Under the pieces are notes generated by a model that worked only from the letters and a program-made list of their open reading frames with translations, did not search any database and had not been told where the DNA came from. A DNA stretch of 64,000 bases from IMG/VR virus record IMGVR_UViG_3300018080_005419, one strand, 5' to 3'. Shown piece after piece: positions 23,772 through 59,257 of this stretch. This DNA comes from a virus. How positions within the stretch are numbered: position 1 is the stretch's first letter; every line of letters starts with the position of its first letter. The translations under genes and the position numbers were made by a program.

Positions 23772-24467
23772 TTATTTGCAATTTTCAATTTTGCTATAAA
23801 TAATATCCAATTGTCCCTCCATCACTTTATCTAATTTATATATCGCCTTTTTAACTCTTTCATCTTTGACTCTATTTTCTATAAAATTATATGTCCTAAT
23901 CTTTTCCGCTCTTCCAGATTTTCCAATTTGTTTTTGACGATTAGATTTTCGACTATTCTTTTCAGTATCTATTTGTTTTTCTTGTACTCTTGCTTTTAAT
24001 AATTCCAAAGCCTTTATTTTATTTAAACTTTGTGATCTTCCCCTAGTACAAACCGCTATTGTTTTAGTTGGTAAATGCTTAACTCTGACTCCTGTATCTG
24101 ATGTATTCCTATGTTGTCCTCCTGGACCTTGACCTCGGATAAAATCAACTTCAACATCATTCATATTAAAATTTTCTTGAGTTTTATTAATAGGAAGGAC
24201 AGCAACGGTAATTGTAGATGTATGCCGACGACCTTTTGATTCAGTAGGTGGTACTCTTTGAAGACGATGAATGCCAGACTCGTATTTCACAAGTCTTTCA
24301 ATATCGCCATCAATTTCGCAAATTATTTCAGAATCAGATACATCAAGGAGGGAGAGTTTGATTTGTTCTTGTTTGCAATACTTATCATACATCCTTAACA
24401 TTTCAAGGATAAATTGTTTTGCATCATCTCCACCAACACCTGCGCGAATTTCAAGAATAGCTCTCAT
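23772..24467 (-). CDS. RF1-type peptide chain release factor lacking domain 1
   Basis: EIRAGVGG, ESGIHRLQRVPPTE (PxT, RF1 specificity), HTSTITVAVLP, GPGGQ and EKIRTYNF; 231 aa, against about 360 aa for a full RF1. Confidence 0.85.
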   Translation of the reverse strand: MRAILEIRAGVGGDDAKQFILEMLRMYDKYCKQEQIKLSLLDVSDSEIICEIDGDIERLVKYESGIHRLQRVPPTESKGRRHTSTITVAVLPINKTQENFNMNDVEVDFIRGQGPGGQHRNTSDTGVRVKHLPTKTIAVCTRGRSQSLNKIKALELLKARVQEKQIDTEKNSRKSNRQKQIGKSGRAEKIRTYNFIENRVKDERVKKAIYKLDKVMEGQLDIIYSKIENCK

Positions 24468-24570
24468 TTGAGAATCTCCTTTCGAAAGACAATATTTCAC
24501 TACGACAAAACTAAATTTAGATAGTTTTGCTAATAGCAGTCAGTCATCGAAAGGAGAAATTTAGCCACTT

Positions 24571-25073: not shown

Positions 25074-25360
25074 TGGAGCCACCGGAGGGAATCGAACCCC
25101 CAACCTGCGGTTTCTCCCATTTTCGACTTTCATCGACATCAAAAAGATGCTTATGGGATGGACTTTCCCTTCACCATATCATTTTACTGACTTAGGTGGG
25201 CCGTGTCAAGTCTCTACACTCGCATTTCTGCTAGCTCGGGATTGCCATCAGCATTATCTGTTAAGGTTTCCCCGATTTAGCGGCCTCCACCATATATATT
25301 TCTATATATGGGTGCAATTTTACTTACAAAACCGCTGCTCTACCGTTGAGCTACAGTGGC
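25074..25360 (-). tRNA. trnT: tRNA-Thr(UGU) split by a group I intron between positions 36 and 37
   Basis: Exon 1 25360-25326 (GCCACTG...GCGGT TTTGT) and exon 2 25113-25074 (AAACCGC...GGTTCGATTCC...CGGTGGC T CCA) join into a complete cloverleaf. Confidence 0.92.
25114..25325 (-). ncRNA. 212-nt group I self-splicing intron, no ORF
   Basis: 5' exon ends in U and the intron ends in G. P (AAATCGGGGAAAC), Q (AATCCCGAGC), R (GTAGAGACTTGA), S (AAGGGAAAGTCC), P3 GGCCG/CGGCC, a P2 with GAAA tetraloop and P1 TGT/GCA with U.G at the splice site are all present. Confidence 0.9.
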
Positions 25361-27396: not shown

Positions 27397-27425
27397 AAAA
27401 AACCACCGAGTTTCAGCCCGGTGGT
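27397..27425 (-). terminator. Attenuator terminator (3:4 hairpin)
   Basis: ACCACCGGG-CTGAAA-CTCGGTGGT followed by a T tract. Confidence 0.85.
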
Positions 27426-27447
27426 GAAGTCCGTAAGTCTAATGCTA

Positions 27448-27522
27448 TCACCACCTAAGCTCATTTTTATTGAGCTTTGTCGTTGTAGTTCTTATGGTTG
27501 TGGTGATTACGCTAAAGTTCAT
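27448..27522 (-). CDS. Thr-rich attenuator leader peptide MNFSVITTTIRTTTTKLNKNELRW
   Basis: 7 Thr codons (ACC ACA ACC, ACT ACA ACG ACA); the stop codon lies in segment 2 of mutually exclusive 1:2, 2:3 and 3:4 hairpins. Confidence 0.85.
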   Translation of the reverse strand: MNFSVITTTIRTTTTKLNKNELRW

Positions 27523-27567
27523 GTTTTCTCACAATTCTTATCACTTTCTAAAAACAGACTAAAAATC

Positions 27568-27596
27568 AATATAAATCATAAAACAAACAAAGTCAA
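27568..27596 (-). promoter_or_regulatory. sigma70-type promoter of the Thr leader
   Basis: TTGACT-N17-TATATT. Confidence 0.7.
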
Positions 27597-29243: not shown

Positions 29244-29320
29244 TGGTGGGCGACATAGGACTCGAACCTATAACTTCTTGCGTGTAAAGCAAGTACGCTA
29301 GCCAATTGCGTCAGTCGCCC
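29244..29320 (-). tRNA. trnV: tRNA-Val(UAC)
   Basis: Cloverleaf with CTTGC-TT TAC AC-GCAAG; CCA encoded. Confidence 0.95.
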
Positions 29321-34708: not shown

Positions 34709-34794
34709 TGGTAGCCAAGGTGGGATTCGAACCCACATGGGATTTCTCCCACTTGTTCTTGAGACAAGCGCGTATCCCGTTCCGCCACTTGGCC
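34709..34794 (-). tRNA. trnL: tRNA-Leu(CAA)
   Basis: CTTGT-CT CAA GA-ACAAG; long variable arm; CCA encoded. Confidence 0.95.
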
Positions 34795-34804
34795 TAAAAT
34801 CATT

Positions 34805-35317
34805 CTAAGTCATAATCCATCTTTGCCATGTCTTATGTGTACGAAGATCAATAGCAGTAATAATCATAACATCACGCTGAGGAATAAATGGACGACAACG
34901 AAGCTTCATACCAGCTTCCTCAGGTGTTCTGTTATCCTTTGCACAATTGCACTTTCTACACGCAGCTACAACATTTCCCCACTTATGCTTTCCTCCACGA
35001 CTAGTAGGAAAAACATGATCTATTGTACCGCTCTTAGAAGTCAAACGAGTACCACAATATTGACATTCGAAACTATCACGACGAAGCACATTTTCCTTGC
35101 TAATCGAAATACTTTTAAAAGGCACACGAACATAAGTTATTAGAATCAAAACAGTAGGAAGCTTAAAAACAGCGCCACCTACCAATTTGATATCATGGTA
35201 TTCATCGTGTCCAGATGGCTTTTTAGCTTTACCATTAACCATCTGCATTACAGCTTCTTTCCAGGTAATAACATCGTGTACTTCATAACTTGCATTCAGC
35301 AATAACACACGCTTCAT
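34805..35317 (-). CDS. HNH endonuclease (McrA-like), between two tRNA genes
   Basis: VLRRDSFECQYCG...TIDHVFPTSRGG...NVVAACRKCN. Confidence 0.9.
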   Translation of the reverse strand: MKRVLLLNASYEVHDVITWKEAVMQMVNGKAKKPSGHDEYHDIKLVGGAVFKLPTVLILITYVRVPFKSISISKENVLRRDSFECQYCGTRLTSKSGTIDHVFPTSRGGKHKWGNVVAACRKCNCAKDNRTPEEAGMKLRCRPFIPQRDVMIITAIDLRTHKTWQRWIMT

Positions 35318-35387
35318 TTTATCATCCTCCGTTCATATTTCTCCTTTATAATTTAGCGTATTTATTTAATTTTTTCAAGTATTAAAT

Positions 35388-35461
35388 TGGCAGGAGCGGA
35401 GAGAATCGAACTCCCAGCTAAAGGTTTGGAGCCTTTCATGTTGCCATTACACCACGCTCCT
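35388..35461 (-). tRNA. trnW: tRNA-Trp(CCA)
   Basis: AAAGG-CT CCA AA-CCTTT; CCA encoded. Confidence 0.93.
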
Positions 35462-35488
35462 TTTTATATTTTAATTCCTTTGCTTTTG

Positions 35489-36280
35489 TTAATCTACGTG
35501 CTTCTTTTTGGCAATAATCTCATCTAAAATTTTTAAATCGCTTAAATATGCTTTATCGAAATAAGGTAATAACTCACCCCAAGAATCTGTTTTAGATAAC
35601 ACCAAATACGCATTTGCTCTTGCCTTATTTACGCCCCAATGCATAGCAGAATTGCCAGGACGACGATTGGGACTTAAATGAATACCATGTACAGGTCTTT
35701 CTCTATTGGGCGTAATTTTTCCGAAATAATACGTTACGATTCTACATATAAGTTCTTCGTCACTCATTTTGCCATATTGTCGAAAATATTCTTGCCCAAT
35801 CCATTCAATATCAATTTTATCAAAATATCTCTTTGTGTCTACGCAATGCAATCCTGTCATTCTTCCTGTGCGCCTGAGCATATTACTATAAGGAAGACGA
35901 GTTTCTTTCATAATACGACGATGAATATCTCCAAGCGATTCTTTTGTATCTCTTAAAATTAGAATATCAATATCTCCAATATAAGTTAACGGTTGTCTTG
36001 TTTTTGGAGCAACCACCCATCGCAAAGAATTAAAAATCGGGCTAACTTTTGATTGCGGCCTTAAAAATTTTGCAGGAATTTGACGTAATGCCCATCTACT
36101 ACCAAAATGATTCCTTGCAATTGAAATTAAAGGTTTGTGAGTCTTTTCAAATTGAATCTTATCATCTAAATAAATTTCCATTGTCGATTGTTTATATGTC
36201 TCTAAAGCAGCAGCAATATAAGGAATAACAAATCGATAATATTTCTGATTTGATACTGTTAAAAAGTGAACATTGTTCAA
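35489..36280 (-). CDS. Hypothetical protein, possible glycosyltransferase
   Basis: YIGDIDIL DXD-like motif and SDEELI. Confidence 0.45.
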   Translation of the reverse strand: MNNVHFLTVSNQKYYRFVIPYIAAALETYKQSTMEIYLDDKIQFEKTHKPLISIARNHFGSRWALRQIPAKFLRPQSKVSPIFNSLRWVVAPKTRQPLTYIGDIDILILRDTKESLGDIHRRIMKETRLPYSNMLRRTGRMTGLHCVDTKRYFDKIDIEWIGQEYFRQYGKMSDEELICRIVTYYFGKITPNRERPVHGIHLSPNRRPGNSAMHWGVNKARANAYLVLSKTDSWGELLPYFDKAYLSDLKILDEIIAKKKHVD

Positions 36281-36292
36281 TTTAACATCCTT

Positions 36293-36976
36293 TCAGATTT
36301 TTTGATAGCCTAGCTTTTCAAATACAACATCAGATATGTTATCATTTACAATTTGTATTTGTGTTGAAGTTAAATCAAATGTTTGCATGTTTAAATATTT
36401 TTTTCTTTGTTCTTCAGTAAACACATTTGATTGACCGACTTTTTTCACATTACGCCAACTTGTTGTTGCCTTATTTAATCCGAAATTTCTTTCTATTTTT
36501 TGTAATGCTCCCTTGAATCCATTTATTTTGATTAGATGCTCATATTGAATTCTAATTATTAAAGGAAGTTCTCTCTTTGGAGATATAAACCAATTTAGAA
36601 AGAATTCATTATATAGGCGACACAAATTTTGCAAACTAAAATTTGAAACTTCACCGAGAACATTTTTTGACGTTATAATTTCATCACCAGTTAATCCATT
36701 AATATTACAAATTTCAAATTCTAAATGTCTTCCTCCCATATCTACACAATTTCTTTGTATACTTTCAATCCATGAATACGGATTTTTACTAATCAAAATA
36801 TGGAAAAAATTGTCTTCGAAGTTGAAAATATTAGGATTCACAGAGTGCTTCCAAAAATATCCTCTTTTGACATGATTCTTTATTGTTACATTTTTAAAAT
36901 TAACTCTTAAAAGTTGTTCTAAATATTCTGTTCCACTTCGTTGCAGCCCTATCACAATTCCGGAAAATTCATTCAT
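36293..36976 (-). CDS. Sulfotransferase-like protein (paralog of 63117-63824)
   Basis: GLQRSGTEYL, FWKH, KNPYSWIESI and IQYEHL motifs. Confidence 0.65.
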   Translation of the reverse strand: MNEFSGIVIGLQRSGTEYLEQLLRVNFKNVTIKNHVKRGYFWKHSVNPNIFNFEDNFFHILISKNPYSWIESIQRNCVDMGGRHLEFEICNINGLTGDEIITSKNVLGEVSNFSLQNLCRLYNEFFLNWFISPKRELPLIIRIQYEHLIKINGFKGALQKIERNFGLNKATTSWRNVKKVGQSNVFTEEQRKKYLNMQTFDLTSTQIQIVNDNISDVVFEKLGYQKI

Positions 36977-37094
36977 TTTATCTCTCTAAAATTCAAATCA
37001 AACGACTTACCATTATAATACTTTCTTAGCTATAAAAACCAATTTATCTAAAAATTATAAATAACATCCTATACACCACGATCCTTTCTATATT

Positions 37095-37310
37095 TTAACA
37101 AGAATTAACTACTTTGTTAGCCAACGCATTAAGAGCAGCACTGAGACAAATACTTGGATCACCGCCCCAAAAAGAAAATAATTGTTCATCTGTCACTACA
37201 ACTCCACATCCTTTACATTTATTAACTGAATCTGCCGATGGAATTTTTGAAGTTACACATTTGTATATGTATAATTCTGGGTTATATTCCCATCGATGTG
37301 AAATGTACAT
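37095..37310 (-). CDS. Small hypothetical protein
   Basis: 71-aa ORF with CKGC. Confidence 0.45.
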   Translation of the reverse strand: MYISHRWEYNPELYIYKCVTSKIPSADSVNKCKGCGVVVTDEQLFSFWGGDPSICLSAALNALANKVVNSC

Positions 37311-37329
37311 ATTAGTCCTTCCTCTAAAT

Positions 37330-37357
37330 GCGCTCTCCCAAATTGAGCTATACCCAG
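37330..37357 (-). pseudogene. 5' tRNA fragment (acceptor 5' strand plus D-arm), C1 suggests Pro
   Basis: CTGGGTA TA GCTC AATTTGGGA GAGC G; no anticodon arm, T-arm or CCA found downstream. Confidence 0.55.
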
Positions 37358-37364
37358 TTAAATT

Positions 37365-37583
37365 TTAGGGATAAATAATATTTCCCTGTTCTTCTTGCTT
37401 TTTAACATCTCTCCACGAATACCAAATACTGCTATATTTCCAAGAAGCCTCAACAGTATAATTTCCCCCACATTTAAGTTTCTTATAATACACATCTTTT
37501 TCTGCTTTTTTATATCCTTCTTCAAATGCTTCTTTTATTAATTCAGAAGCAAATTTAGCATATTGCGGCCCTCTTGCTCCCAT
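37365..37583 (-). CDS. Small hypothetical protein
   Basis: Start reassigned to MGARGPQY after AAGGAG. Confidence 0.5.
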   Translation of the reverse strand: MGARGPQYAKFASELIKEAFEEGYKKAEKDVYYKKLKCGGNYTVEASWKYSSIWYSWRDVKKQEEQGNIIYP

Positions 37584-37602
37584 AATCAACTCCTTTAAAT
37601 TT

Positions 37603-37725
37603 TGGCGGAGAGGACAGGAATTGAACCTGCACATCCGGATCCTATAAGATTTAAAAGGAACCATTTTTGCCGGAAAGCGAATGGTAGATCAATTCCGGCG
37701 CTCTAACCATTTAAGCTACCTCTCC
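37603..37725 (-). pseudogene. tRNA-like gene with a 54-nt insert replacing the anticodon loop
   Basis: Intact acceptor GGAGAGG/CCTCTCC, G73-CCA, D-arm, T-arm and anticodon stem CCGGA/TCCGG; no assignable anticodon. Confidence 0.7.
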
Positions 37726-37792
37726 AAAAAAACCATTTCGAATCCTTTTATTTTATTATATCTTTGATGTTCATTGAAATTATCATTAAATT

Positions 37793-37872
37793 TGGCGGGA
37801 TGTACGGGAATTGAACCCGCGATTCCTTAGCCTTGACAGGGCTACGTGCAGAAACCACTACACCAACATCCC
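37793..37872 (-). tRNA. trnD: tRNA-Asp(GUC)
   Basis: TAGCC-CT GTC AA-GGCTA; G73; CCA encoded. Confidence 0.92.
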
Positions 37873-37880
37873 ATATTTTT

Positions 37881-37970
37881 TGGTGAGGATGGAGAGATTT
37901 GAACTCTCATGGCCTTTTTGCGACCACCACATTCTGAGTGTGGCCCGTATACCAATTCTAGCACATCCCC
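37881..37970 (-). tRNA. trnL: tRNA-Leu(CAG)
   Basis: CCACA-CT CAG AA-TGTGG; long variable arm; CCA encoded. Confidence 0.93.
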
Positions 37971-37972
37971 AA

Positions 37973-38209
37973 TTAGACGTTCAGCAAATGTAACATTGCT
38001 GAAAACGTCTTTAATAGATCTTCTTTGCGAACATGAGGACCACGAAAAACTTTGCCCTCTGAAACAATTGAAAGACGAATAGCTTCTTCTCCATCATAAT
38101 CAACTACTTTTGTAGCTCTTAAATAAGGAGCAACTTCAATATACTCCTGATTACTTCCGTCACGATAAACCTTTGTTTCTTCAGAAATTGCATAACCTAA
38201 TAAATCCAT
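37973..38209 (-). CDS. Small hypothetical protein with an RBS-occluding hairpin
   Basis: 78-aa ORF; hairpin at 38210-38258. Confidence 0.55.
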   Translation of the reverse strand: MDLLGYAISEETKVYRDGSNQEYIEVAPYLRATKVVDYDGEEAIRLSIVSEGKVFRGPHVRKEDLLKTFSAMLHLLNV

Positions 38210-38298
38210 ATCGTTCTCCTTTGTAACCAGGACAATTCCCGGTTATGACAAGAACGATTATGCGAAGAAAAAACCTCCATAAAAACAAGAAAAATTTT

Positions 38299-38384
38299 TG
38301 GTGCGGTAGAGAGGATTCGAACCTCTATAGGATTTCTCCCACATGGCCCTCAACCATGCGCGTATCCCTTTCCGCCACTGCCGC
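38299..38384 (-). tRNA. trnL: tRNA-Leu(GAG)
   Basis: CATGG-TT GAG GG-CCATG; long variable arm; one acceptor mismatch; CCA encoded. Confidence 0.9.
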
Positions 38385-38394
38385 ACAATCAACA

Positions 38395-38727
38395 TTATAC
38401 TACCATTACAAATAATCTGGCCATTTCCCAACCTCTATCTGTAGGCTCAAATCTGGCAATAGGCGAATAATAATTTTTATTCTCTGCAAAATGAGGATCT
38501 AAATGTCCCTGATCCAAAATATCTCTGATGGTTATATTTTCATAAACAAGAATTTTTCTTCCTTCATAATTTATACATCTCGGATATCTCACAATCATAA
38601 CAAGATAAGACCCAATGTGTTCGTATTTTTCAATTTCAAAATCTCGCGGATCAGGATTTGGCAATTCTTTTTGAGTTACGCTTGGAGCATCATATGTGCT
38701 CCTTGAGCCTATTAAACAAACTCCCAT
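38395..38727 (-). CDS. Hypothetical protein
   Basis: Start reassigned to MGVCLIGS after AAGGAG; contains LPNPDP and LDPHF. Confidence 0.65.
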   Translation of the reverse strand: MGVCLIGSRSTYDAPSVTQKELPNPDPRDFEIEKYEHIGSYLVMIVRYPRCINYEGRKILVYENITIRDILDQGHLDPHFAENKNYYSPIARFEPTDRGWEMARLFVMVV

Positions 38728-38745
38728 AATTCTCTCCTTAAAAAT

Positions 38746-38831
38746 TGGTGCTCTCGACAGGATTCGAACCTGTATAGGATTTCTCCCGCCAGTTCCTAAG
38801 ACTGGTGCGTATTCCTTTCCGCCACGAGAGC
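38746..38831 (-). tRNA. trnL: tRNA-Leu(UAG)
   Basis: CCAGT-CT TAG GA-ACTGG; long variable arm; CCA encoded. Confidence 0.95.
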
Positions 38832-38838
38832 ATTTTAG

Positions 38839-38915
38839 TGGTGGGCAGGGGCGGATTTGGACCGCCGACCTCCACATTTTCAGTGTGGCACTCTACCGGA
38901 CTGAGTTACCTGCCC
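38839..38915 (-). tRNA. trnF: tRNA-Phe(GAA)
   Basis: CCACA-CT GAA AA-TGTGG; the T-loop reads TCCAAAT; CCA encoded. Confidence 0.9.
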
Positions 38916-38921
38916 TTATTT

Positions 38922-39014
38922 TGGTCTGCAGGGAGGGAGTTGAACCCCCAATGTTTACCCGAAGGGACCAGTTTTACAAACTGGCACGACACAACCGATA
39001 GTCGTCTCCTGCAG
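38922..39014 (-). tRNA. trnY: tRNA-Tyr(GUA) with C1:G72
   Basis: CCAGT-TT GTA AA-ACTGG; long variable arm; acceptor CTGCAGG/CCTGCAG, A73, CCA; 5-bp D-stem. Confidence 0.88.
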
Positions 39015-39018
39015 AAAT

Positions 39019-39095
39019 TGGTGGACCGGACAAGACTTGAACTTGCAGCCTACTCCTAGCCAAGGAGTCGCTCTCCCAATTAGAGCTACCGGCCC
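39019..39095 (-). tRNA. trnA: tRNA-Ala(GGC)
   Basis: ACTCC-TT GGC TA-GGAGT; G3:U70; CCA encoded. Confidence 0.93.
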
Positions 39096-39137
39096 AAAAT
39101 AAATACGCTAAATTGTCAAAGAGCCACATTTAAATCT

Positions 39138-39214
39138 TGGTGTACCCGACAGGAATCGAACCTGCAACATCCTCCATGCAAAAGAGGTACTCTCCCAGAT
39201 TGAGTTACGGGCAC
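39138..39214 (-). tRNA. trnA: tRNA-Ala(UGC)
   Basis: CCTCT-TT TGC AT-GGAGG; G3:U70; CCA encoded. Confidence 0.9.
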
Positions 39215-39225
39215 ATTTTATATTT

Positions 39226-39314
39226 TGGTCGGTGGAGGAGGATTTGAACCTCCGATCTCCTTGCGGCCTCTTCCTTATCAGGGAAGCGCTCTGACCAGAC
39301 TGAGCTACCCACCG
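39226..39314 (-). tRNA. trnI: tRNA-Ile(GAU) with an expanded variable arm and C1:G72
   Basis: CTTCC-CT GAT AA-GGAAG; 16-nt variable region AGGCCGCAAGGAGATC; CCA encoded. Confidence 0.87.
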
Positions 39315-39336
39315 ATTATCGCTCCTTAATTCCAAC

Positions 39337-39364
39337 AAAAAAAGCCAACCGTTTTTCGGCTGGC
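39337..39364 (-). terminator. Attenuator terminator upstream of the tRNA array
   Basis: GCCAGCCG-AAAAA-CGGTTGGC followed by T7. Confidence 0.9.
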
Positions 39365-39393
39365 GTTCGAGGGTTTTCTGTTTTTGCGTTTCT

Positions 39394-39489
39394 TTAGTTT
39401 ACAGAACCTCCTCGTTCGCCAGCTAGCCACAGGGCTGCTGCCATAATATCGGCAAAGGGCAAATAAAGTCGGTTCTCTTTATGATTCAC
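39394..39489 (-). CDS. 31-aa attenuator leader peptide MNHKENRLYLPFADIMAAALWLAGERGGSVN
   Basis: GTG start after GGAG; the 3' third overlaps the antiterminator 5' strand; codons 8-23 match the downstream tRNAs. Confidence 0.8.
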   Translation of the reverse strand: MNHKENRLYLPFADIMAAALWLAGERGGSVN

Positions 39490-39521
39490 GGTTCTTTCTC
39501 CAAATAAAAGTATCAAAGCTA

Positions 39522-39550
39522 TTTCTACCACTTATAGACAACAAAGTCAA
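39522..39550 (-). promoter_or_regulatory. sigma70-type promoter of the tRNA-array leader
   Basis: TTGACT-N17-TAGAAA with an upstream TG; shares TTGACTTTGTT with the Thr-leader promoter. Confidence 0.6.
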
Positions 39551-39558
39551 GGAAAATT

Positions 39559-39747
39559 TTAAATATTTTCTCTTTTTTCTCTATAAAATATTTCACCGCA
39601 GTCATAACACCATACAATATCAATGTATTTCCAAAGCAAAAAACCCTTAAATTTAAACCCAACTCCATGATAACAAGGTTTATGCAACTTACATATACAA
39701 TGGGCCCAACATTTAATATAAGCTAAAAATCTTCTAACCGATATCAT
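39559..39747 (-). CDS. Small hypothetical protein
   Basis: 62-aa ORF with CYDCG. Confidence 0.45.
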   Translation of the reverse strand: MISVRRFLAYIKCWAHCICKLHKPCYHGVGFKFKGFLLWKYIDIVWCYDCGEIFYREKRENI

Positions 39748-47192: not shown

Positions 47193-47663
47193 TTATTGCA
47201 CTAATGCCAAACAAAATTGTTCTTTCTTTTGTAGAAGTCCAGAAGCTATTGTTTTAATTGGATATAAATGTTTTTCTTCCGTATAAGAAGCGTCATCAAC
47301 AAAGATTACATTAGGATTGAAATTGCCAATAGATTGAGTTGAATTGGCACTACGAGAATTAATAAAACGTTTGGAAATAGACACTGATGGGTTCAATTTT
47401 CCTATAACATTGTCAATTACGTCTTGTTGTCTCATACAAATAACAAATTTATTGTTATATTTATTTAATGCCAAATCCAATATTGCAGAGGTCATTCCGC
47501 ACCTTCTTGTTCCTGCAATTTTAACAGTCCCATATTCCCTTAAAAAATGCATCGGTTCCATTCTGTCTTTATTTTTAATGCAGTTTTCTTCCAACTGCAT
47601 TAATAAACAAGCTTCGATCATATTTTCTAACGATTGTCTCGATCTTTCCCAAATTTCTTTCAC
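47193..47663 (-). CDS. Degenerate P-loop-like hypothetical protein
   Basis: GTG start after AAGGAG; GTRRCGMTS and IFVDDAS resemble Walker A/B-like elements. Confidence 0.45.
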   Translation of the reverse strand: MKEIWERSRQSLENMIEACLLMQLEENCIKNKDRMEPMHFLREYGTVKIAGTRRCGMTSAILDLALNKYNNKFVICMRQQDVIDNVIGKLNPSVSISKRFINSRSANSTQSIGNFNPNVIFVDDASYTEEKHLYPIKTIASGLLQKKEQFCLALVQ

Positions 47664-47680
47664 TATATCTCCTTTTGGAA

Positions 47681-47768
47681 TGGCGGAGAGTGAGGGATTC
47701 GAACCCCCGGTACATTGCTGTACACAGGTTTTCAAAACCTGCGCCTTCGACCACTCGGCCAACTCTCC
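47681..47768 (-). tRNA. trnS: tRNA-Ser(UGA)
   Basis: CAGGT-TT TGA AA-ACCTG; long variable arm; G73; CCA encoded. Confidence 0.95.
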
Positions 47769-47976
47769 ACTTCTTATTACTTTTGGTCCGGATATACGCA
47801 AATTCTATGTATCTCACCACAAGCTTTGCATCTATATTCTAACACTTCGCTACCTGTTGGTTTAACCAATTGATTATTTTCGCTCTCTTCAAAATAGCCA
47901 TTAAAATAAAACTGATTACATTCACACTTTTGACACTTAAACATATTATCCATTTAACTTTCCTTTCTCTGAGAAG

Positions 47977-48195
47977 TTAATCTTCAAGGGGACAATCTTT
48001 AAGAATTTTCTTCATCAATTTTATTTCATCAACATCAATACCCAAAGCACTTGAAATTCTTTGAGCTTTATCTTTTATTTTTTTAGGAGCATACAAACAA
48101 GCAGCTACTCCATCCAAAGAAGATTGAATTTCTTTTATATCTTCTTTAATTTGATTTAGTTTATTTTTGATCTCATGTTGCTGTTCTTTGTTCAT
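47977..48195 (-). CDS. Small coiled-coil protein
   Basis: 72-aa ORF. Confidence 0.45.
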
Positions 48196-48413
48196 TTTTC
48201 TCTTCTTAATATTCTTCCTCTGGTCAAATCATAAGGCGTAATCTCAAGATCTACTTTATCACCAGGAATGACCCTAATAAAGTTTTTTCTCATTTTTCCA
48301 CAAAGATGAGCAAGAACAATATAATCTTGATCATCTATCTTTACCTTAAACATAGCATTTGGTAAAGCTTCAATTACTTTTCCTGTTACTTGAATTCCCT
48401 CTTCTTTTGCCAT
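48192..48413 (-). CDS. infA: Translation initiation factor IF-1
   Basis: [24 protein letters not shown]...[19 protein letters not shown]...PYDLTRGRI. Confidence 0.95.
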
Positions 48414-48439
48414 TATGCTCCACTTCCTAATTTTAAATT

Positions 48440-48514
48440 TGGTTACCCCGCTAGGACTTGAACCTAGAAAAATAGACCCAAAATCTATTGTGTTGCCAAT
48501 TACACCACGGGGTA
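48440..48514 (-). tRNA. trnQ: tRNA-Gln(UUG)
   Basis: ATAGA-TT TTG GG-TCTAT; U1:A72; CCA encoded. Confidence 0.92.
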
Positions 48515-48530
48515 ACATCCTTTCATAAAT

Positions 48531-48569
48531 AAAAAGAGCCTCAACTTCCAATTTAGCTAAGGCTCTTTT
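48531..48569 (-). terminator. Probable terminator after hsp20
   Basis: AAAAGAGCC...GGCTCTTTTT inverted repeat. Confidence 0.5.
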
Positions 48570-48594
48570 AAAAGACAAATTTTAGAATCTATAT

Positions 48595-49023
48595 TTAGCT
48601 AATAGAGATTCTCCTTGTCTTATTGGCCTCAGATTTTGGAAGCTTGATCAACAGAATACCATCTTTTAACTCTGCTTCAGCCTTATCAACATCTACATCT
48701 GGTAAAGAGAGCGAGCGAGAGTAAGATGAGCAAAACTGTTCATCAACAATAATCTTTTCTTTTTCTTTCCTTTCTTTTTCTTTCTTCTTTGCTTTCAGAG
48801 TTAGCATACCCTGTTCATACGAAATGTCCACTGATTTTTTATCAATTCCTGGCATTTCGGCACTAATTTCATATCCATCCTCATTCTCTACTATTTTAAC
48901 GGGTGGCGCTACTTCATTAAACAAAAAACCGGGCCATTTTTTTAAACCTTTCTCAAATAAATTGTCAAAATCATTCCAAACAGTTGACGGACTACTATTT
49001 CTTCTTTGCATTAAACCGTACAT
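48595..49023 (-). CDS. Small heat shock protein Hsp20
   Basis: AEMPG...ISYEQGMLTL...YSRSLSLP...AELKDGILLIKLPK alpha-crystallin motifs. Confidence 0.9.
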   Translation of the reverse strand: MYGLMQRRNSSPSTVWNDFDNLFEKGLKKWPGFLFNEVAPPVKIVENEDGYEISAEMPGIDKKSVDISYEQGMLTLKAKKKEKERKEKEKIIVDEQFCSSYSRSLSLPDVDVDKAEAELKDGILLIKLPKSEANKTRRISIS

Positions 49024-49129: not shown

Positions 49130-50035
49130 CTAAACCATGTCATTTTGACCTAATTCTTTTTCGGTATCTTTTCTTAACTCTGACAAAATGCTATTAAAAT
49201 AAGAGAATAAATAAAAGAAAATAAGACTGATTCCGATAAAGGCTATTCCACAATCAAAAATTAAGAACATCAATGAAAAAAGCACAAACAGAATTCTCAA
49301 TATGTTAATAAAGAAAATTGCTTTATCCCATTTTTCTAGTTCTGATTTTAAAAATAAATTTAGTTCTTTTTTGTTAGATAAAGCATGAAAACTACCGTTC
49401 TTGTCCATTACACTGCTTTTCTCGCCCTTGCTATCCATTATTTTTGGTTTACATCATCTACGACTTCTTTAACTAATTCTTCCGGCGTTTTCTTTAGATC
49501 TTCTTCTGTTAAACCAAAGCTTATCCATTCATTATTCAAAAGAAAACTAAATACCAACTTATCTTTCAAATCTCCATAGACTCCATATGTTATATTTGCT
49601 TTGGCATTCCTTTTATTTGGGAAATTCTTATCGATTTCTTGCAGTATACTTCTTGTCCAATCTAATCCAGGTTTTATTTCTGACATTTTAATCCCCCAAC
49701 TTATAGATTTGGTTAATTTCCATTTGATCTATATTGCCAAGTGTTTTAAACAAAGGATCATTTATAATTTCATCAATATTTCGAATTGCAGAAACAACTT
49801 TTCCTTGGTCATAATATGGATAGCCATTTTCATATTGAGAATTTGTTGCGTCGAAAATCTCACCATTGACAATATTCCAGAAATGGTGCGTTTCTCCTTC
49901 TTTTAGTCCAGGTCCCATCATCAAAGGAACACCAAAGATCAGAGAAATAGTCCCAGAATAGAAAAAACAATGGTCTATCGGATGTTTTACGTTTTCTTCT
50001 GCCCATTCTACAACTTCTTCTAGAACAGTCACCAT
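49130..50035 (-). CDS. Three small hypothetical ORFs (49130-49438 membrane, 49438-49686, 49688-50035)
   Basis: Abutting ORFs in the main orientation. Confidence 0.5.
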
Positions 50036-50814: not shown

Positions 50815-51461
50815 ATTTTCTTCCATTCCTTTTCTATAATATCCATCCAAGCTTGCAATTTGGCTCTTAAATAGGTATCTCCAACTCGAACAGTTAAGAG
50901 TCCATACTTAGAAGTCCAGTTTCTTCCACTTAAATTACCACTATTTGATTTTCGTATAGTGTTAATGTCACATTCCTTGATCTTTAAAAGTTTTGCCCAA
51001 TATTTCTTTAATTCTTCCTCATCTTGATCAATATGCATTTGTAGTCTAAATAATATCTTTCTGTTTTTATTTTTCAGTTCTTTTATCCATTTATAAGCAA
51101 TACTCACTATAACAGGATTAGAATTCGCTATAGCAACAGCATTTCTATTCTTTCTATAACCTTCTGTTATATATAAAATTATAAAATCTCTAAATGTTGG
51201 TTTAAAGAATAATTCATTAGCTAGTTCTAGTCCTTGTTGATACGCTTCCTCTCGCAATTTTTTGTACTTTTTATGAGAAATTTTCCCGGCAGCTATCGCC
51301 GCTTTACTTCTTTTCTTTGTCCACTTTAATGGCTTAGTATCCCTAATCCAATAATACACAGTTCCCTTCTTCATACATAGACGTTCGCATATATCGTCTA
51401 ATGACATTCCCTTTTCGCGAAGCTTAATTGCCTTTTCTCTTAGATGGTCATACTTTTTCAT
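50805..51461 (-). CDS. HTH plus LAGLIDADG-like endonuclease, tRNA-adjacent
   Basis: N-terminal HTH (GMSLDDICERL...KGTVYYW), then LYITEG...AIANSNP...YG; paralog of 60456-61121. Confidence 0.6.
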   Translation of the reverse strand: MKKYDHLREKAIKLREKGMSLDDICERLCMKKGTVYYWIRDTKPLKWTKKRSKAAIAAGKISHKKYKKLREEAYQQGLELANELFFKPTFRDFIILYITEGYRKNRNAVAIANSNPVIVSIAYKWIKELKNKNRKILFRLQMHIDQDEEELKKYWAKLLKIKECDINTIRKSNSGNLSGRNWTSKYGLLTVRVGDTYLRAKLQAWMDIIEKEWKKIRV

Positions 51462-51511
51462 TTTATACCTCCGGTCTAATAAAAGAATCTATATAGACCG
51501 GAGGTATAAAA
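51461..51511 (-). promoter_or_regulatory. 18-bp perfect hairpin occluding the RBS
   Basis: TTTTATACCTCCGGTCTA / TAGACCGGAGGTATAAAA covers GGAGG and the A of the start codon. Confidence 0.8.
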
Positions 51512-51524
51512 GAATTATAAATAA

Positions 51525-51584
51525 CCCCATCCAGTACATTCTTCTACGTTTCTTTACCCTGCTCTGCCCTCCTATACAATCCTC
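51525..51584 (-). repeat. Pentamer-periodic array B, (NN-GNA)n
   Basis: GAGGA TTGTA TAGGA GGGCA GAGCA GGGTA AAGAA ACGTA GAAGA ATGTA CTGGA TGGGG; A ends 11/11 units and G is at position 3 in 10/11. Confidence 0.8.
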
Positions 51585-51587
51585 TTA

Positions 51588-52568
51588 TTAATAACTAGAA
51601 GATCCAGGCACAGCACCGTAACGCTTCACAACTTTCCTAACAGCCTCTTTATTACAATCAGTTACTGGAATCTTACGCCAAACATCAACAGCAGGCGTTA
51701 CAACAATTTGCTTTTCTACCACCTTATATTTAGCCGGTACATCAATACGACGAGTGTTAGCTGGAGCAATTTTTACCATCTTTTTAATAGTTTTAGTCAC
51801 AGCTGGAACATCAACATATTCTACTTTTTGAGGAGTAACAATTGATTTGTTTAAAAGCACTCTAGATTGAACCGGAATCTTTTTTATTCTGGCTTCTTCG
51901 ATAAGTTTCTTAACAGTAATTGTCTTTGTAACAGCTTGAATCTTAATCTTTTCAATAGAACCAGGAGTTACAAGCACTTTCTTTGTATATTTTGCTTCCT
52001 TAGCTTTTGCATTTAGCTTGATATAACATTCTCCTTTTGTTTCTCCATCTTTAACAACACTTGAAGCAGGACAGTCAAATGAATCTACTTCTGATCTGGC
52101 AGGAGCAACAATATATTTTTCTTCTGTCTCTTTAAATACAGGCTCTTTAACAACAAGCTTTTCATATGCAGGAACAACAACAACTTCTTCTTGAACTGTC
52201 TTGTATTTAGCAGGAATAAATTTATATTCAAATGTTTCACGTACCTCAAAATCTCTAGATGCGCTCATTTCTACTTCCGAAACTACCGGCTTTTTATATG
52301 CTGGAACTAATACAATTGTTTCTTCTTTCCATTTATATTTTGCTGGGACATTTTGCATATAGAAAGTTGCCTCTTTTACTTTTACTCTATCTTTAACTGT
52401 TTCCATTACAGCAGGCTTTGTTACCAAACACCAAACATATCCTTCTTCTGGAGTCGGGGGTTTTGCGCCTTCCTTAAATGGAATCTCTGTTACTTCTGCA
52501 GCATTAGCAAAAACTGTAATAACAAATGCAAATAAAATACCACAAATAACTCTTGCTACCTTCATCAC
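51588..52568 (-). CDS. Secreted protein with V..PA.Y repeats
   Basis: Signal peptide; repeated VPAYK/VPAKY/EKVLV-like units. Confidence 0.6.
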   Translation of the reverse strand: MMKVARVICGILFAFVITVFANAAEVTEIPFKEGAKPPTPEEGYVWCLVTKPAVMETVKDRVKVKEATFYMQNVPAKYKWKEETIVLVPAYKKPVVSEVEMSASRDFEVRETFEYKFIPAKYKTVQEEVVVVPAYEKLVVKEPVFKETEEKYIVAPARSEVDSFDCPASSVVKDGETKGECYIKLNAKAKEAKYTKKVLVTPGSIEKIKIQAVTKTITVKKLIEEARIKKIPVQSRVLLNKSIVTPQKVEYVDVPAVTKTIKKMVKIAPANTRRIDVPAKYKVVEKQIVVTPAVDVWRKIPVTDCNKEAVRKVVKRYGAVPGSSSY

Positions 52569-52787
52569 TTTCTCCTTGAAACAAAAAATTAAACGTTTTG
52601 TTTATCCTCTAAAATTGTAATCCTGTATATTTCCTTGCACTTAAAACACTTATAGCCCAAGGTTGAAACTACAAATTGATTATTGCTATCCTTTTCTTCT
52701 TCTACGTATCCTATCCAAAAGAAATGCTCAGAGCCACACATTTCACATTTTAAACTCTTCATTAAACCTCTCTTTCTAAAAATTTAA

Positions 52788-52837
52788 ACCGTTCGTCTAC
52801 GTTTCTCTACAATCGAGTGCTATACTCTACTATCTTG
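52788..52837 (-). repeat. Pentamer-periodic array C, (NN-GNA)n
   Basis: CAAGA TAGTA GAGTA TAGCA CTCGA TTGTA GAGAA ACGTA GACGA ACGGT, overlapping the stop codon of 52830-53555. Confidence 0.7.
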
Positions 52838-53555
52838 CTCCTTTTTTAAAATCCCTATTTTGCATATTCTGTTCCCATTCTTCGATCCCTATCATTTCAT
52901 GTCTCAACAGTCTTCCTACTTCATGATTAGGATAAAAGTCCAACATTTCCTCGCAACAATACTCAAGTAACACTAAAAGATCAATTCTAAATTTATCGTC
53001 TTTTGTGTCGCCATTCCAAAAACTTTGCCTTATATGAAACTCTAATAGCTCTTTTCTTTTGTCGTTGTACTTCTCTTCTAGTTCAGTTGTTGCATTTTCA
53101 CCGTTTATTTGCCAATCTAATATTTTTGTTATTTCTCTTTCTGGAAATTGACTCTTTAATAGGTTAAGACAAAATATCAAAGATTTCTTAATTCTTTTGA
53201 CAGCTAGTGTTTCCGTCAGGTCATAATCTTCCCACTCAAACATCTCTCCAATTTCATCGTCTAAATCGGCCTCAAATATATCTAAAGCTTCCCAGGCAAA
53301 ATCATGCGTATCATTATCAACCCAAATATATTTTTCAGCCTCAATAGACTCAGCAAAACCCTCAATGCCGAAATTGTCCATAATTGTATAACCAGCAATA
53401 CACGGATCACCTCTCCAATCTTCCTCTCTTACATTCCATCCATTCTTGGGCAAAATTTCCAATATTTGCTTAATTTGCCACGGAGTAAGATGCTTCTTTT
53501 TAACTGTAAAAGAAGCAGAACTAGAATTACTGACAAATCCAAGTCTAATTTTCAT
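52830..53555 (-). CDS. Hypothetical protein with N-terminal GFVSNSSS motif
   Basis: MKIRLGFVSNSSSASF, a motif I recognise from uncharacterised phage proteins. Confidence 0.6.
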   Translation of the reverse strand: MKIRLGFVSNSSSASFTVKKKHLTPWQIKQILEILPKNGWNVREEDWRGDPCIAGYTIMDNFGIEGFAESIEAEKYIWVDNDTHDFAWEALDIFEADLDDEIGEMFEWEDYDLTETLAVKRIKKSLIFCLNLLKSQFPEREITKILDWQINGENATTELEEKYNDKRKELLEFHIRQSFWNGDTKDDKFRIDLLVLLEYCCEEMLDFYPNHEVGRLLRHEMIGIEEWEQNMQNRDFKKGAR

Positions 53556-54754
53556 ATTGTTCTCTTTTTAATATTTTCCAAAATCGGATCAAACCAATAA
53601 TCTAGATCTAATGAATTAACAGGAATCTCTCTATTAACAAGGGCAGCCAATAATTTTTCATGATTCCCTTTATGTGCTTTTAAAAATCCATCTCCTATAG
53701 CTTCAACTGGAACCTTGCATAACGCGGCCTCCAATAAAACTGTTGAATTAATTCCATATACTAATTTTGCTCCTAATATATGTTCTATACTAGATCCTTC
53801 TGTTACAATGTCAAATCTACTAGTATACTCTTTATCATCATATGGATGTCTTTTAATTATTACTTTTTCACCTTTAAATTTTTCTTCTACATGTTCAATA
53901 AATAACTGCATATCTTTATAAGGAGAATGATGTCTTATGTTCGTGTCTCTTGGTAATTGAAGAGGAATAAATATGTAATCCTTTTCTTCTCGTTTTCTAT
54001 CCTTTAAAAATATTTTTCTTCTTTCTTCTAATTTTTGAATATGATCATCTGTAATCCATGAAAGATCATCATTTATCAACTCAGATCCAGCATTAATACC
54101 ATTCGAATCAATAGTAAAATAATTCTTTTGAGGAAAATATCCTACTTCTGTTATATAATATGGAATTCCATTGTTTTCACACATTTCTTTAATTGGCGTA
54201 TAATAATCATCAACAGCATTCCAAATAATCACACAATCTGAATTTTTCGCTTTATCTCTCAAATCAATTGCAGAACAAAAATCCCTATTGTATATTACCC
54301 TATACCCCTTCTTTCTTAAATAAACAATTAAATTAGAAAGCCATAACTTTGTGTGATCCGGCCACCAATCTCCTATAAAAATTTCTGGCGAATCTGGAAA
54401 CAATTTTGGCAACCGAGATACCTCAAAAAAAGTTTTAATATCAATTTTTTCTTCAGTAAATCTTCTATTAAAAATAAGCTGTTCTTTAAAGAAATTTGAA
54501 AATTTTGTGTCAAATAACAATTCATCGCAATGTTTCAAAGACTCATCATAAAAACCTAAATAGTATGAGCTAATAGACAATTCGAATTTAATCAAATTAA
54601 GAGTGTCTTCTGTTGCACCATTTTCGATTGCTTTTTTAGCATAAGCATAGCTTTCACCATATTCTTTATTTCTTCTACATAAATTAGCTAACTCATAGAG
54701 AGTTTGCATTTCTTGGTTTTCTTTATAATTATTAAGAAGCTCTCTTTTATTCAT
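53552..54754 (-). CDS. TPR plus KpsS/KpsC-like capsule-synthesis domain protein
   Basis: TPR-like N-terminus; FIPLQLPRD, IIKRHP and INSTVLLEA motifs. Confidence 0.65.
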   Translation of the reverse strand: MNKRELLNNYKENQEMQTLYELANLCRRNKEYGESYAYAKKAIENGATEDTLNLIKFELSISSYYLGFYDESLKHCDELLFDTKFSNFFKEQLIFNRRFTEEKIDIKTFFEVSRLPKLFPDSPEIFIGDWWPDHTKLWLSNLIVYLRKKGYRVIYNRDFCSAIDLRDKAKNSDCVIIWNAVDDYYTPIKEMCENNGIPYYITEVGYFPQKNYFTIDSNGINAGSELINDDLSWITDDHIQKLEERRKIFLKDRKREEKDYIFIPLQLPRDTNIRHHSPYKDMQLFIEHVEEKFKGEKVIIKRHPYDDKEYTSRFDIVTEGSSIEHILGAKLVYGINSTVLLEAALCKVPVEAIGDGFLKAHKGNHEKLLAALVNREIPVNSLDLDYWFDPILENIKKRTI

Positions 54755-54759
54755 AGCGT

Positions 54760-57576: not shown

Positions 57577-58670
57577 TTTTTCTCCTCTTTTAACTTTTCA
57601 ACAGAAAACTCTCTATTTCTAATTGTTGCAGATCTAATATCTTCAGGTAAATTTTCCATCTTTAAAATTTCATTACATAATAAAAGAGATTCCTGAAATT
57701 TACCTATATAATACGCAGCAATAGATTTCTCAAATTTTAAACCATATGTATAAACCCATCGATGAATAAACAAAATGTCATTATCAGGATGTGGAATGCT
57801 TTCTCCTAACAAAGAAAATCTATAAGCCAATTGATACTTTTTCTTAGCCCGATAATGTAATGCCAAATAATAAAGTGGTTCTGCTCTTGAAGACCTACAT
57901 TGAAACGAATCTAATAATAAATAAACGGCTTTTTCATCTTGATTTAGATTTAAAGCTGCTAATCCGGATTGCATTATAGAATAAAAAACCTCCTGTTCCC
58001 ATCCTCCGCTATTTGCTCTCTTTTCATACCAAATAAATGCATTTTCATAATCTTTAATGTCTCGATATGACTGAGCTAAATAAAACATATATCTAGTATT
58101 ATCAGGTTCATCTTTAAGACCTTGCGTTAAAAGTTCTATATCTCTCTTAAATTTATCTGCCTTTGATCCTCCATCCATATGATCCTTTATTTGAATTGTA
58201 TTTATTATCTCTGTTGTTTTTCTTTGTTCGCTATTTATAACCTCATGAGTCACACCTACATAGTGCCAATCTAAACCATTTTTTAACAAGTACTCACATA
58301 CATATTCCACATCATGATCGAAACGAATATGATATGAATCTTTCTCTAAATCCCTTTTGTTGAATTTATCTAAAAAAACATATTCTTCATCAGCATCACA
58401 AACTAAAATATAATCGGATTTCCCACGACAAAACTCAAGGGCTTCATTTCTATTATGCCCAAAATTAACCCAAGGCCTTTCAATCAATTCCCCCTTAATC
58501 CCCTTCATTTCTTCTTTAATAATATCCTGAGTTCCATCAATTGAGCCAGTATCTACAATAATCCAATAATCAATTTGAGATTTGAGAGGCGCTAAACATC
58601 TTCGTATAATTTTAGATTCATTTTTAACAATCATACAAAGACAAATTGTTTTCTTTCTTTTGTATGCCAT
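57573..58670 (-). CDS. GT2-TPR glycosyltransferase
   Basis: CLCMIVKNE, VDTGSID, NFGHNRN, DADE and YVGVTHE, then TPR repeats. Confidence 0.85.
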   Translation of the reverse strand: MAYKRKKTICLCMIVKNESKIIRRCLAPLKSQIDYWIIVDTGSIDGTQDIIKEEMKGIKGELIERPWVNFGHNRNEALEFCRGKSDYILVCDADEEYVFLDKFNKRDLEKDSYHIRFDHDVEYVCEYLLKNGLDWHYVGVTHEVINSEQRKTTEIINTIQIKDHMDGGSKADKFKRDIELLTQGLKDEPDNTRYMFYLAQSYRDIKDYENAFIWYEKRANSGGWEQEVFYSIMQSGLAALNLNQDEKAVYLLLDSFQCRSSRAEPLYYLALHYRAKKKYQLAYRFSLLGESIPHPDNDILFIHRWVYTYGLKFEKSIAAYYIGKFQESLLLCNEILKMENLPEDIRSATIRNREFSVEKLKEEKK

Positions 58671-58672
58671 AT

Positions 58673-59257
58673 TTATTCCTTAACTGTTGACCGAATTAAG
58701 AAACGCCACTTATCTTGCATTAACTTAATTTCATGAATATCTAATAAATCTTCATATCTTGTTATAATCGATTGTTCATTTTCGAAAAATCTTACATGAC
58801 CTGGATCATCAAATTTAGGAAGGGAAAATATCAATGGTTTGTTCGGCTTCATTCTTTTTATAACTTCTTGATCAAACTCCACATGTTCAAAAAATTCTAT
58901 AGACACATAAAATAAATTATCATTTTCATCTATAAATTTATTGAAGTCGTAATTAGATAAATCAACCTTTACAAATGAAAATCTATCGTCTAATGATTTC
59001 TTGGTGGACATATCTATAGCAATTCCTGAAAAATCATAGCCAATATATTTTATAGGATATCCGGTAGTATGAGCAATTACTTCCGCTAAATGTCCAGGAC
59101 CACAACCTAAATCGATAATTTTTGTAGCACCTTGTTTGATTAAAGTATCTGCTACCTCTTTCCAAATAGGATACCAACGCAATGCTGATGCCTCTTGCTC
59201 ATAATGACTTCCTAAATAAATACCATCATAATAAGCTGCATCTTGTTGGCGTCCCAT
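58673..59257 (-). CDS. Class I SAM-dependent methyltransferase
   Basis: IIDLGCGPG, GYDFS and EFFEHV motifs. Confidence 0.8.
   Translation of the reverse strand: MGRQQDAAYYDGIYLGSHYEQEASALRWYPIWKEVADTLIKQGATKIIDLGCGPGHLAEVIAHTTGYPIKYIGYDFSGIAIDMSTKKSLDDRFSFVKVDLSNYDFNKFIDENDNLFYVSIEFFEHVEFDQEVIKRMKPNKPLIFSLPKFDDPGHVRFFENEQSIITRYEDLLDIHEIKLMQDKWRFLIRSTVKE

Follow-up and report, generated by a model that had tools for sequence, protein, structure and literature searches.

A candidate leader-peptide attenuator in front of a tRNA gene array of a probable huge phage

The leader and the tRNA genes behind it

Phage-encoded transfer RNAs (tRNAs) are now viewed as a means to offset mismatched codon usage and to withstand host defences that cleave tRNAs, and, to our knowledge, next to nothing has been established about when and in what amounts phages make them. 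Here, a short open reading frame (ORF) that precedes an array of tRNA genes was analysed in a stretch of 64,000 nucleotides (nt) of viral DNA (IMG/VR record IMGVR_UViG_3300018080_005419), which is called the window below. The window is part of a 280-kilobase (kb) metagenomic contig from a sediment sample and has a G+C content of 32%. Nearly all of its genes lie on the minus strand. Its source is probably a huge phage; one gene of the tRNA array has relatives on IMG/VR viral contigs, and no capsid or terminase genes were seen within the 64 kb.

The promoter and the leader ORF were read from the sequence, and the tRNA genes were called with ARAGORN and Rfam. The features of the leader and of the array are as follows.

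39522-39550, minus strand: sigma-70-like promoter (-35 box TTGACT at 39550-39545, 17-nt spacer, -10 box TAGAAA at 39527-39522)
39498-39501, minus strand: Shine-Dalgarno motif GGAG, 8 nt before the GTG start
39394-39489, minus strand: leader ORF of 31 codons, from GTG to TAA (39396-39394)
39421-39468, minus strand: codons 8-23 of the leader, the proposed index of the array
39359-39423, minus strand: antiterminator hairpin (outer helix 39423-39417 with 39365-39359, plus two inner helices)
39337-39364, minus strand: intrinsic terminator (stem of 8 base pairs including 6 G-C pairs, 5-nt loop, T7)
38746-39314, minus strand: proximal block of tRNA-Ile(GAU), Ala(UGC), Ala(GGC), Tyr(GUA), Phe(GAA) and Leu(UAG)
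38299-38384, minus strand: tRNA-Leu(GAG), following a gene for 110 amino acids (aa) of the phage family phrog_13501 (38730-38395)
37793-37970, minus strand: tRNA-Leu(CAG) and tRNA-Asp(GUC)
35388-35461, minus strand: distal tRNA-Trp(CCA), preceded by several protein genes
34709-34794, minus strand: distal tRNA-Leu(CAA), preceded by an HNH endonuclease gene (35317-34805)
29244-29320, minus strand: tRNA-Val(UAC), a possible twelfth member, whose codon GTA is leader codon 30, beyond the modelled sensing span

The 3' strand of the antiterminator is also the 5' arm of the terminator, and the stop codon of the leader sits in the apical loop of the antiterminator, which appears in both the minimum-free-energy and the centroid fold. 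The gap from the terminator stem to tRNA-Ile is 29 nt, too short for a sigma-70 promoter, and no other promoter for the array tRNAs was visible in a sigma-70-type scan. A longer version of the ORF would begin at an in-frame GTG at 39531, which overlaps the -10 box. No T-box was matched in Rfam at the gathering score in the window, nor at E values up to 10 in 39250-39650, and the Rfam leader families (Thr_leader, His_leader, Leu_leader, Trp_leader and others) gave no match at the gathering score in the whole window. The tRNA-like look of 39430-39395 was considered as a decayed tRNA within the leader, and this idea found no support from Rfam or ARAGORN.

ARAGORN and Rfam agreed on exactly the 11 intact tRNAs named by the original prediction, all on the minus strand from 39314 to 34709. 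The end of the array at 34709 was a choice of that prediction; the next strong terminator on the same strand lies only at 27424. Because there is no strong terminator between 39337 and 27424, tRNA-Val(UAC) is a possible twelfth member of the unit. The distal tRNA-Trp and tRNA-Leu(CAA), which lie 4 kb away behind protein genes, may have promoters of their own.

Codon content of the leader, of its relatives and of comparable leaders

Codon reading was judged by standard wobble rules, and the codon usage of 62 long ORFs of the window served as the chance model. The sequence of codons 8-23 proved to be as originally read. Of these 16 codons, 14 are read by the 11 downstream tRNAs, and each tRNA has a cognate codon among them; four different Leu codons are present, TTA is absent, and codons 2-7 are matched by none of the tRNAs, in full agreement with the earlier description. 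Coverage of all 11 species has a chance probability of 5.7e-7 when the 16 codons are taken, 7e-6 with codons 2-21 and 2.6e-4 with the entire ORF, and the probability of at least 14 of 16 codons being read is about 3e-6. Among the real genes of the window, none of 15,105 stretches of 16 codons reaches 14 read codons or 11 species. For stretches of 30 codons, 11 species are covered in none of 14,237 and 10 species in 31. Since no stretch of a real gene attains the same match, hydrophobic segments of ordinary proteins are not the explanation. The overlap is thus above chance both under window codon usage and against real genes.

Two diverged relatives were found. One, L004, is a Joint Genome Institute (JGI) contig detected through a flanking protein of 268 aa, which is 69% identical between L004 and the window; the other, L035, was detected with a pattern made from the unusual long-armed tRNA-Ile. 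Their leader ORFs are located as follows.

L004, 635-754: leader ORF
L035, 5390-5274, minus strand: leader ORF

Both contigs contain a promoter, an ORF of 38 to 39 codons, an antiterminator and a strong terminator, with the first tRNA 33-40 nt further on. Alignment of the leader DNA of the window with that of the relatives left almost no conserved sequence, and the layout is nonetheless retained. The leader peptides are 38% identical, with only a short N-terminal motif in common, and the 5' strand of the antiterminator contains the leader stop codon in both relatives. In L035, the frame is also open from an ATG just past the -10 box (5277-5453, minus strand; 59 aa, a gene call in public data), and this longer version contains the N-terminal motif twice.

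Compared with the window, the arrays of L004 and L035 have extra tRNAs for Ile-UAU, Leu-UAA, His, Val-UAC and several Ser, and are without Trp and Leu-CAG; an Ala tRNA (Ala-UGC) is found in L035 and none in L004. The leader covers 14 of the 15 species of its own array in L004 (P 2.5e-3) and 13 of 14 in L035 (P about 1e-2). Differences in codon content follow these differences in tRNA content. For example, TGG occurs only in the window leader, while L004 and L035 have no tRNA-Trp. The codons ATA, TTA and AGT/AGC occur only in the leaders of L004 and L035, whose arrays carry the matching tRNAs, and CAT, which is present in the relatives' leaders, is read by their arrays and not by that of the window. 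Six Ala codons are found in the leader of L035, which has tRNA-Ala right behind it, against three in L004. When the tRNA species that vary among the three arrays were tabulated, a tRNA that was present was accompanied by its codon in 17 of 19 cases, and one that was absent in 8 of 17 (Fisher P 0.008). The co-variation of leader codons with tRNA content, which had been proposed as a test of the original prediction, was thus positive in these relatives.

The substitutions between L004 and L035 point in the same direction. Their leader codons show 9 synonymous and 15 non-synonymous differences, and the latter are often radical (Asp/Tyr, Phe/Ser, Leu/Ala). The replaced codons are read by the own array in 16 of 22 cases under strict reading (P 0.005) and in 19 of 22 if U34 reads all four codons (P 2e-4), where about 45% is expected, and codons 13 and 14 are swapped between the two leaders. 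Such changes are more easily reconciled with a constraint on codon content than with one on the peptide.

Other searches returned little that could be compared. Contigs L001-L003 are identical to the window across 5 kb and uninformative. Among GenBank phages there was no close relative, the sole match being 47 nt of a tRNA-Ile, and IMG/VR scans with the leader motif, the flanking 268-aa protein and the unusual tRNA-Ile pattern found no relative. A looser tRNA-Ile pattern and, separately, the 110-aa array gene gave unrelated phage arrays only, none of them with a strong terminator just before a tRNA, and three short contigs with the closest homologues of the 110-aa gene had no tRNA context. A profile of the leader peptide matched a single sequence in the protein collection, the L035 ORF itself. 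No RNA run containing the stretch was found, and contigs from three DNA runs yielded just tRNA cross-matches and identical low-depth pieces.

Several peculiarities of the arrays were recorded along the way. The tRNA-Ile(GAU) carries an extra hairpin of about 12 nt in its variable region (window 39226-39314, L004 1171-1258, L035 3722-3809, L038 5559-5646); this hairpin-bearing tRNA is kept across low-G+C relatives and also occurs in an unrelated high-G+C phage contig. The tRNA-Tyr(GUA) has C1:G72 as its first pair and a body with a long variable arm, and is near-identical in the window (38922-39014) and L035 (4126-4218). A complete tRNA body at 37606-37725 on the minus strand (Rfam 55 bits; not called by ARAGORN) has an insert of about 50 nt in its anticodon loop, and a 5' tRNA fragment at 37330-37357, also on the minus strand, has only the acceptor and D arm and runs into the start of a 71-aa ORF. 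Genes for HNH-type endonucleases are inserted among the tRNAs of both the window (34805-35317) and L035 (about 4260-5025, minus strand); one of those in L035 lies between tRNA-Ala and tRNA-Tyr and has a promoter-like site of its own.

The same window contains another leader of this kind, located as follows together with a tRNA gene behind it.

27397-27596, minus strand: Thr-rich attenuator with a promoter (TTGACT, 17-nt spacer, TATATT), a leader of 24 codons (27522-27448), 7 of them for Thr, plus an antiterminator and a terminator
25074-25360, minus strand: tRNA-Thr(UGU), interrupted by a group I intron; it lies downstream of the Thr leader at a distance of about 2 kb

The -35 box and the next 5 bases of the array-leader promoter are shared with the Thr-leader promoter at 27596. 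No Thr biosynthesis genes lie downstream of the Thr leader. The intron of the tRNA-Thr is about 210 nt long and follows the anticodon; Rfam matched it to Intron_gpI with 30.6 bits (E 6e-6), below the gathering score, and the gene was missed by ARAGORN. A release-factor-like protein with matches to RF-1 domain PHROGs is encoded at 23772-24500 (minus strand), also downstream of the Thr attenuator. Only five strong intrinsic terminators were found on the minus strand of the 64 kb. The stems richest in G-C pairs belong to the two that are preceded by a promoter and a short ORF, namely those of the array leader and the Thr leader; the remaining three come after ordinary genes, and one of these sits just before tRNA-Gln.

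A comparable layout was found in the Caulobacter phage phiCbK (JX100813, 47000-53000), where terminators annotated in GenBank (48120-48166, 49745-49769 and 51465-51502) stand before three tRNA blocks. Short ORFs precede these terminators, of which gp083 alone is annotated. This 45-aa ORF, before a Pro/Lys/Leu/Ser block, covers 9 of the 9 species, and 21 of its 44 codons are read, compared with 21% in the usage (P 1e-4). In the ORF before the Phe/Val/Ile/Gln block, 9 of 12 consecutive codons are matched, but the ORF as a whole is not significant, and the result for the Glu/Asp block was not significant. There is no mention of leaders or of attenuation in the paper on the phiCbK genome (PMC3556154).

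The proposed switch and its alternatives

With moderate confidence, we interpret the element as a ribosome-mediated leader-peptide transcription attenuator before a phage tRNA operon, which allows read-through when its own codons are decoded slowly. Transcription would start from the promoter near 39520, and we infer that a ribosome translates the 31-codon leader. When translation keeps pace, the ribosome would be on codons 21-30 and cover the 5' strand of the antiterminator (39423-39417) during synthesis of the terminator; the terminator could then form and the tRNA genes would not be transcribed. If the ribosome were held earlier in the ORF, the antiterminator (39423-39359) would form first, sequester the 5' arm of the terminator and permit read-through into the tRNAs. 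Since the leader is spelled almost entirely in the amino acids, and in part in the exact codons, of the array tRNAs, slow decoding of any of these codons would increase production of all tRNAs of the block, so that tRNA supply would be under feedback of an OR type. Possible settings of low supply are early infection, codons poorly served by the host and removal of tRNAs by host or defence nucleases.

This switch was modelled by folding the transcript as it stands just before synthesis of the 3' terminator arm, with the ribosome footprint masked codon by codon; this snapshot was used because equilibrium folding of full transcripts shows no switch in L004 and L035. In the window leader, the predicted antiterminator probability is 0.98 without a ribosome. 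It is 0.9-1.0 when the ribosome stalls anywhere in codons 1-20, takes an intermediate value at codon 21 and is 0 from codon 22 or 23 to codon 30. In L004 it is predicted to be 1.0 up to codon 35-36 and then 0, and L035 and the Thr leader behave alike in the model. The part of the original prediction that described an OR-gate thus stands in its attenuator layout and in the modelled read-through upon delay at codons 1-20. It does not hold for codons 22-23 (CTA and GCT), and perhaps 21 (TGG), where a stalled ribosome would mask the 5' arm of the antiterminator and give termination instead of read-through, nor for the unmatched codons 2-7, which lie in the span. These last codons (22-23, perhaps 21) are probably outside the sensing span, and Leu-UAG would then be sensed through CTG only.

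A stronger version of this reading, in which the leader is a codon-resolved checklist of isoacceptors, so that loss of a single tRNA (e.g. to a host anticodon nuclease) triggers the replacement set, and in which such leaders have arisen repeatedly in unrelated large phages, is put forward tentatively and remains on the doubtful side. The match itself is real; it holds mostly for amino acids and only to a modest degree for isoacceptors.

A number of observations weigh against the attenuator or its codon resolution. When the peptide was kept fixed and synonymous codons were redrawn, P was 0.017, mainly from the rare CTG, and the same shuffle gave 0.15 and 0.20 for the leaders of L004 and L035; because the value for the window is only 0.017, the signal is mostly amino-acid composition, and the isoacceptor-by-isoacceptor index of the original prediction is weak beyond it. 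Each matched codon appears once or twice, in contrast to the codon runs of classical leaders, and codons 2-7 match no array tRNA yet fall inside the modelled sensing span. The fold gives a helix constraint on codons 17-24, in line with the caveat on codons 17-23 attached to the prediction, and codons 21-23 are constrained by helix 2 as well. The leaders also cover foreign arrays highly, because the arrays share most species. L004 and L035, being related to each other, are not independent replicates, and the start of the leader is ambiguous in both; the window leader starts with GTG. Promoter-like matches stand just before tRNA-Leu(GAG) and tRNA-Leu(CAA), at a frequency not above chance in the region. 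Two of the three phiCbK blocks (1 and 3) do not reach significance on their own.

The folding results add to these points. In full-length equilibrium folds the terminators of L004 and L035 always win, which means that the switch must operate kinetically, like that of classical attenuators. Although the window leader allows a 1:2 pairing, the modelled default without a ribosome is the antiterminator, the Thr leader being intermediate (0.39). An untranslated array leader would therefore be expected to read through, unlike trpL.

Three other explanations were weighed. The element could be a true translation-coupled attenuator that senses overall translation speed or ribosome availability, with the amino-acid match as a by-product of a bias to hydrophobic or abundant residues or of the limits set by the helices. 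The mainly amino-acid level of the signal, the high coverage of foreign arrays, a modelled sensing span that takes in the ORF through codon 20 with its unmatched codons 2-7, and the helix constraint on codons 17-24 all speak for it. However, the same coverage is reached in no stretch of a real gene, hydrophobic ones included, codon presence tracks tRNA presence among the relatives, radical substitutions remain within the set read by the array, and the same genome has a plainly codon-specific Thr leader; we regard this explanation as unlikely. Still less likely, in our view, is that the ORF is an ordinary gene for a small hydrophobic peptide with its own terminator, that the tRNAs are transcribed from phage-specific promoters invisible to a sigma-70 scan, and that the match is coincidence plus shared composition. 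Huge phages often use their own polymerases and promoters, residues 8-24 of the leader resemble a membrane helix, a pipeline called the L035 ORF as a 59-aa gene, and a plain terminator also stands before tRNA-Gln (48565-48536). What such a gene would not lead one to expect is that in all three leaders, despite their differing sequences, the terminator 5' arm is also part of an alternative helix that is stronger or forms earlier, or that a stop codon lies inside an antiterminator strand in L004 and L035. The gap of just 29-40 nt from terminator to first tRNA, and a poorly conserved peptide (38%) with radical changes and a swapped codon pair, also argue against it.

The least probable explanation, which we give very little credence, is an artefact of chance and selection, in which the ORF, the 16-codon segment and the end of the array were picked after the match had been seen. 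Codons 8-23 and the boundary at 34709 were indeed defined post hoc, with a twelfth tRNA and an interrupted tRNA omitted. On the other hand, the ORF is picked out by its position and not by its codons, the test on the whole ORF still gives 2.6e-4, and the predicted relationship was found in L004 and L035, which had not been seen when the prediction was made and which largely refute this explanation.

Known systems and the surroundings of the array

In the multivalent attenuators of enterobacteria, such as the ilvGMEDA leader (Ile/Val/Leu) and thrL (Thr/Ile), a ribosome stall decides on read-through. Like these, the window leader has a promoter, a short ORF with codons for more than one amino acid, and an antiterminator and a terminator that exclude each other. 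It differs from them in that tRNA genes (and small phage genes) in a phage, not biosynthetic enzymes, lie behind it, in that 7 amino acids and 11 isoacceptors instead of 2-3 amino acids are represented, mostly by single codons rather than runs, and in that the modelled default without a ribosome is read-through. The pheM leader of the Escherichia coli pheST operon, which attenuates an aminoacyl-tRNA synthetase gene via Phe codons, is similar in controlling a component of the translation machinery through the cognate codon. It concerns a synthetase for one amino acid and responds to charging, whereas the window leader is proposed to respond to the amount of tRNA. T-box riboswitches also couple tRNA status to terminator read-through before translation-related genes, but they bind uncharged tRNA directly and without an ORF, while the window element would sense tRNA via the ribosome. 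The layout of promoter, short ORF, terminator and tRNA block is that of phiCbK gp083, which has no sequence similarity to the window leader and belongs to a phage with 66% G+C and a cultured host.

The type of control, leader-peptide attenuation, is thus a known one, and the novelty would be that the regulated genes are tRNAs. Full-text searches of the literature turned up no account of tRNA genes controlled by leader-peptide attenuation, in either phages or bacteria. If the proposed reading is true, the leader would act as a sensor of decoding capacity that calibrates itself; it would be more multivalent than any other known leader, and the first example of tRNA genes controlled by attenuation. 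It could provide a sequence rule for co-regulated phage tRNAs and a compact synthetic sensor of tRNA availability. The model is directly testable by reporter fusions and, as phiCbK has the same layout, by phiCbK infection of Caulobacter.

In the 64 kb as a whole there are 18 to 20 tRNA genes. A terminator that precedes a tRNA gene and has no leader ORF was found in a separate minus-strand segment (47650-49023), which contains an HSP20 gene, a plain terminator, tRNA-Gln(UUG), an IF-1-like gene and tRNA-Ser(UGA). The terminator is located as follows.

48565-48536, minus strand: plain terminator before tRNA-Gln

The other genes of the window encode HNH endonucleases, many glycosyl- and methyltransferases, and members of phage-only families. 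Positions 1-22000 and 51000-58700 are dense in genes for glycosyltransferases, methyltransferases, UDP-galactopyranose mutase and capsule-synthesis-like proteins, an amount that is unusual for a phage.

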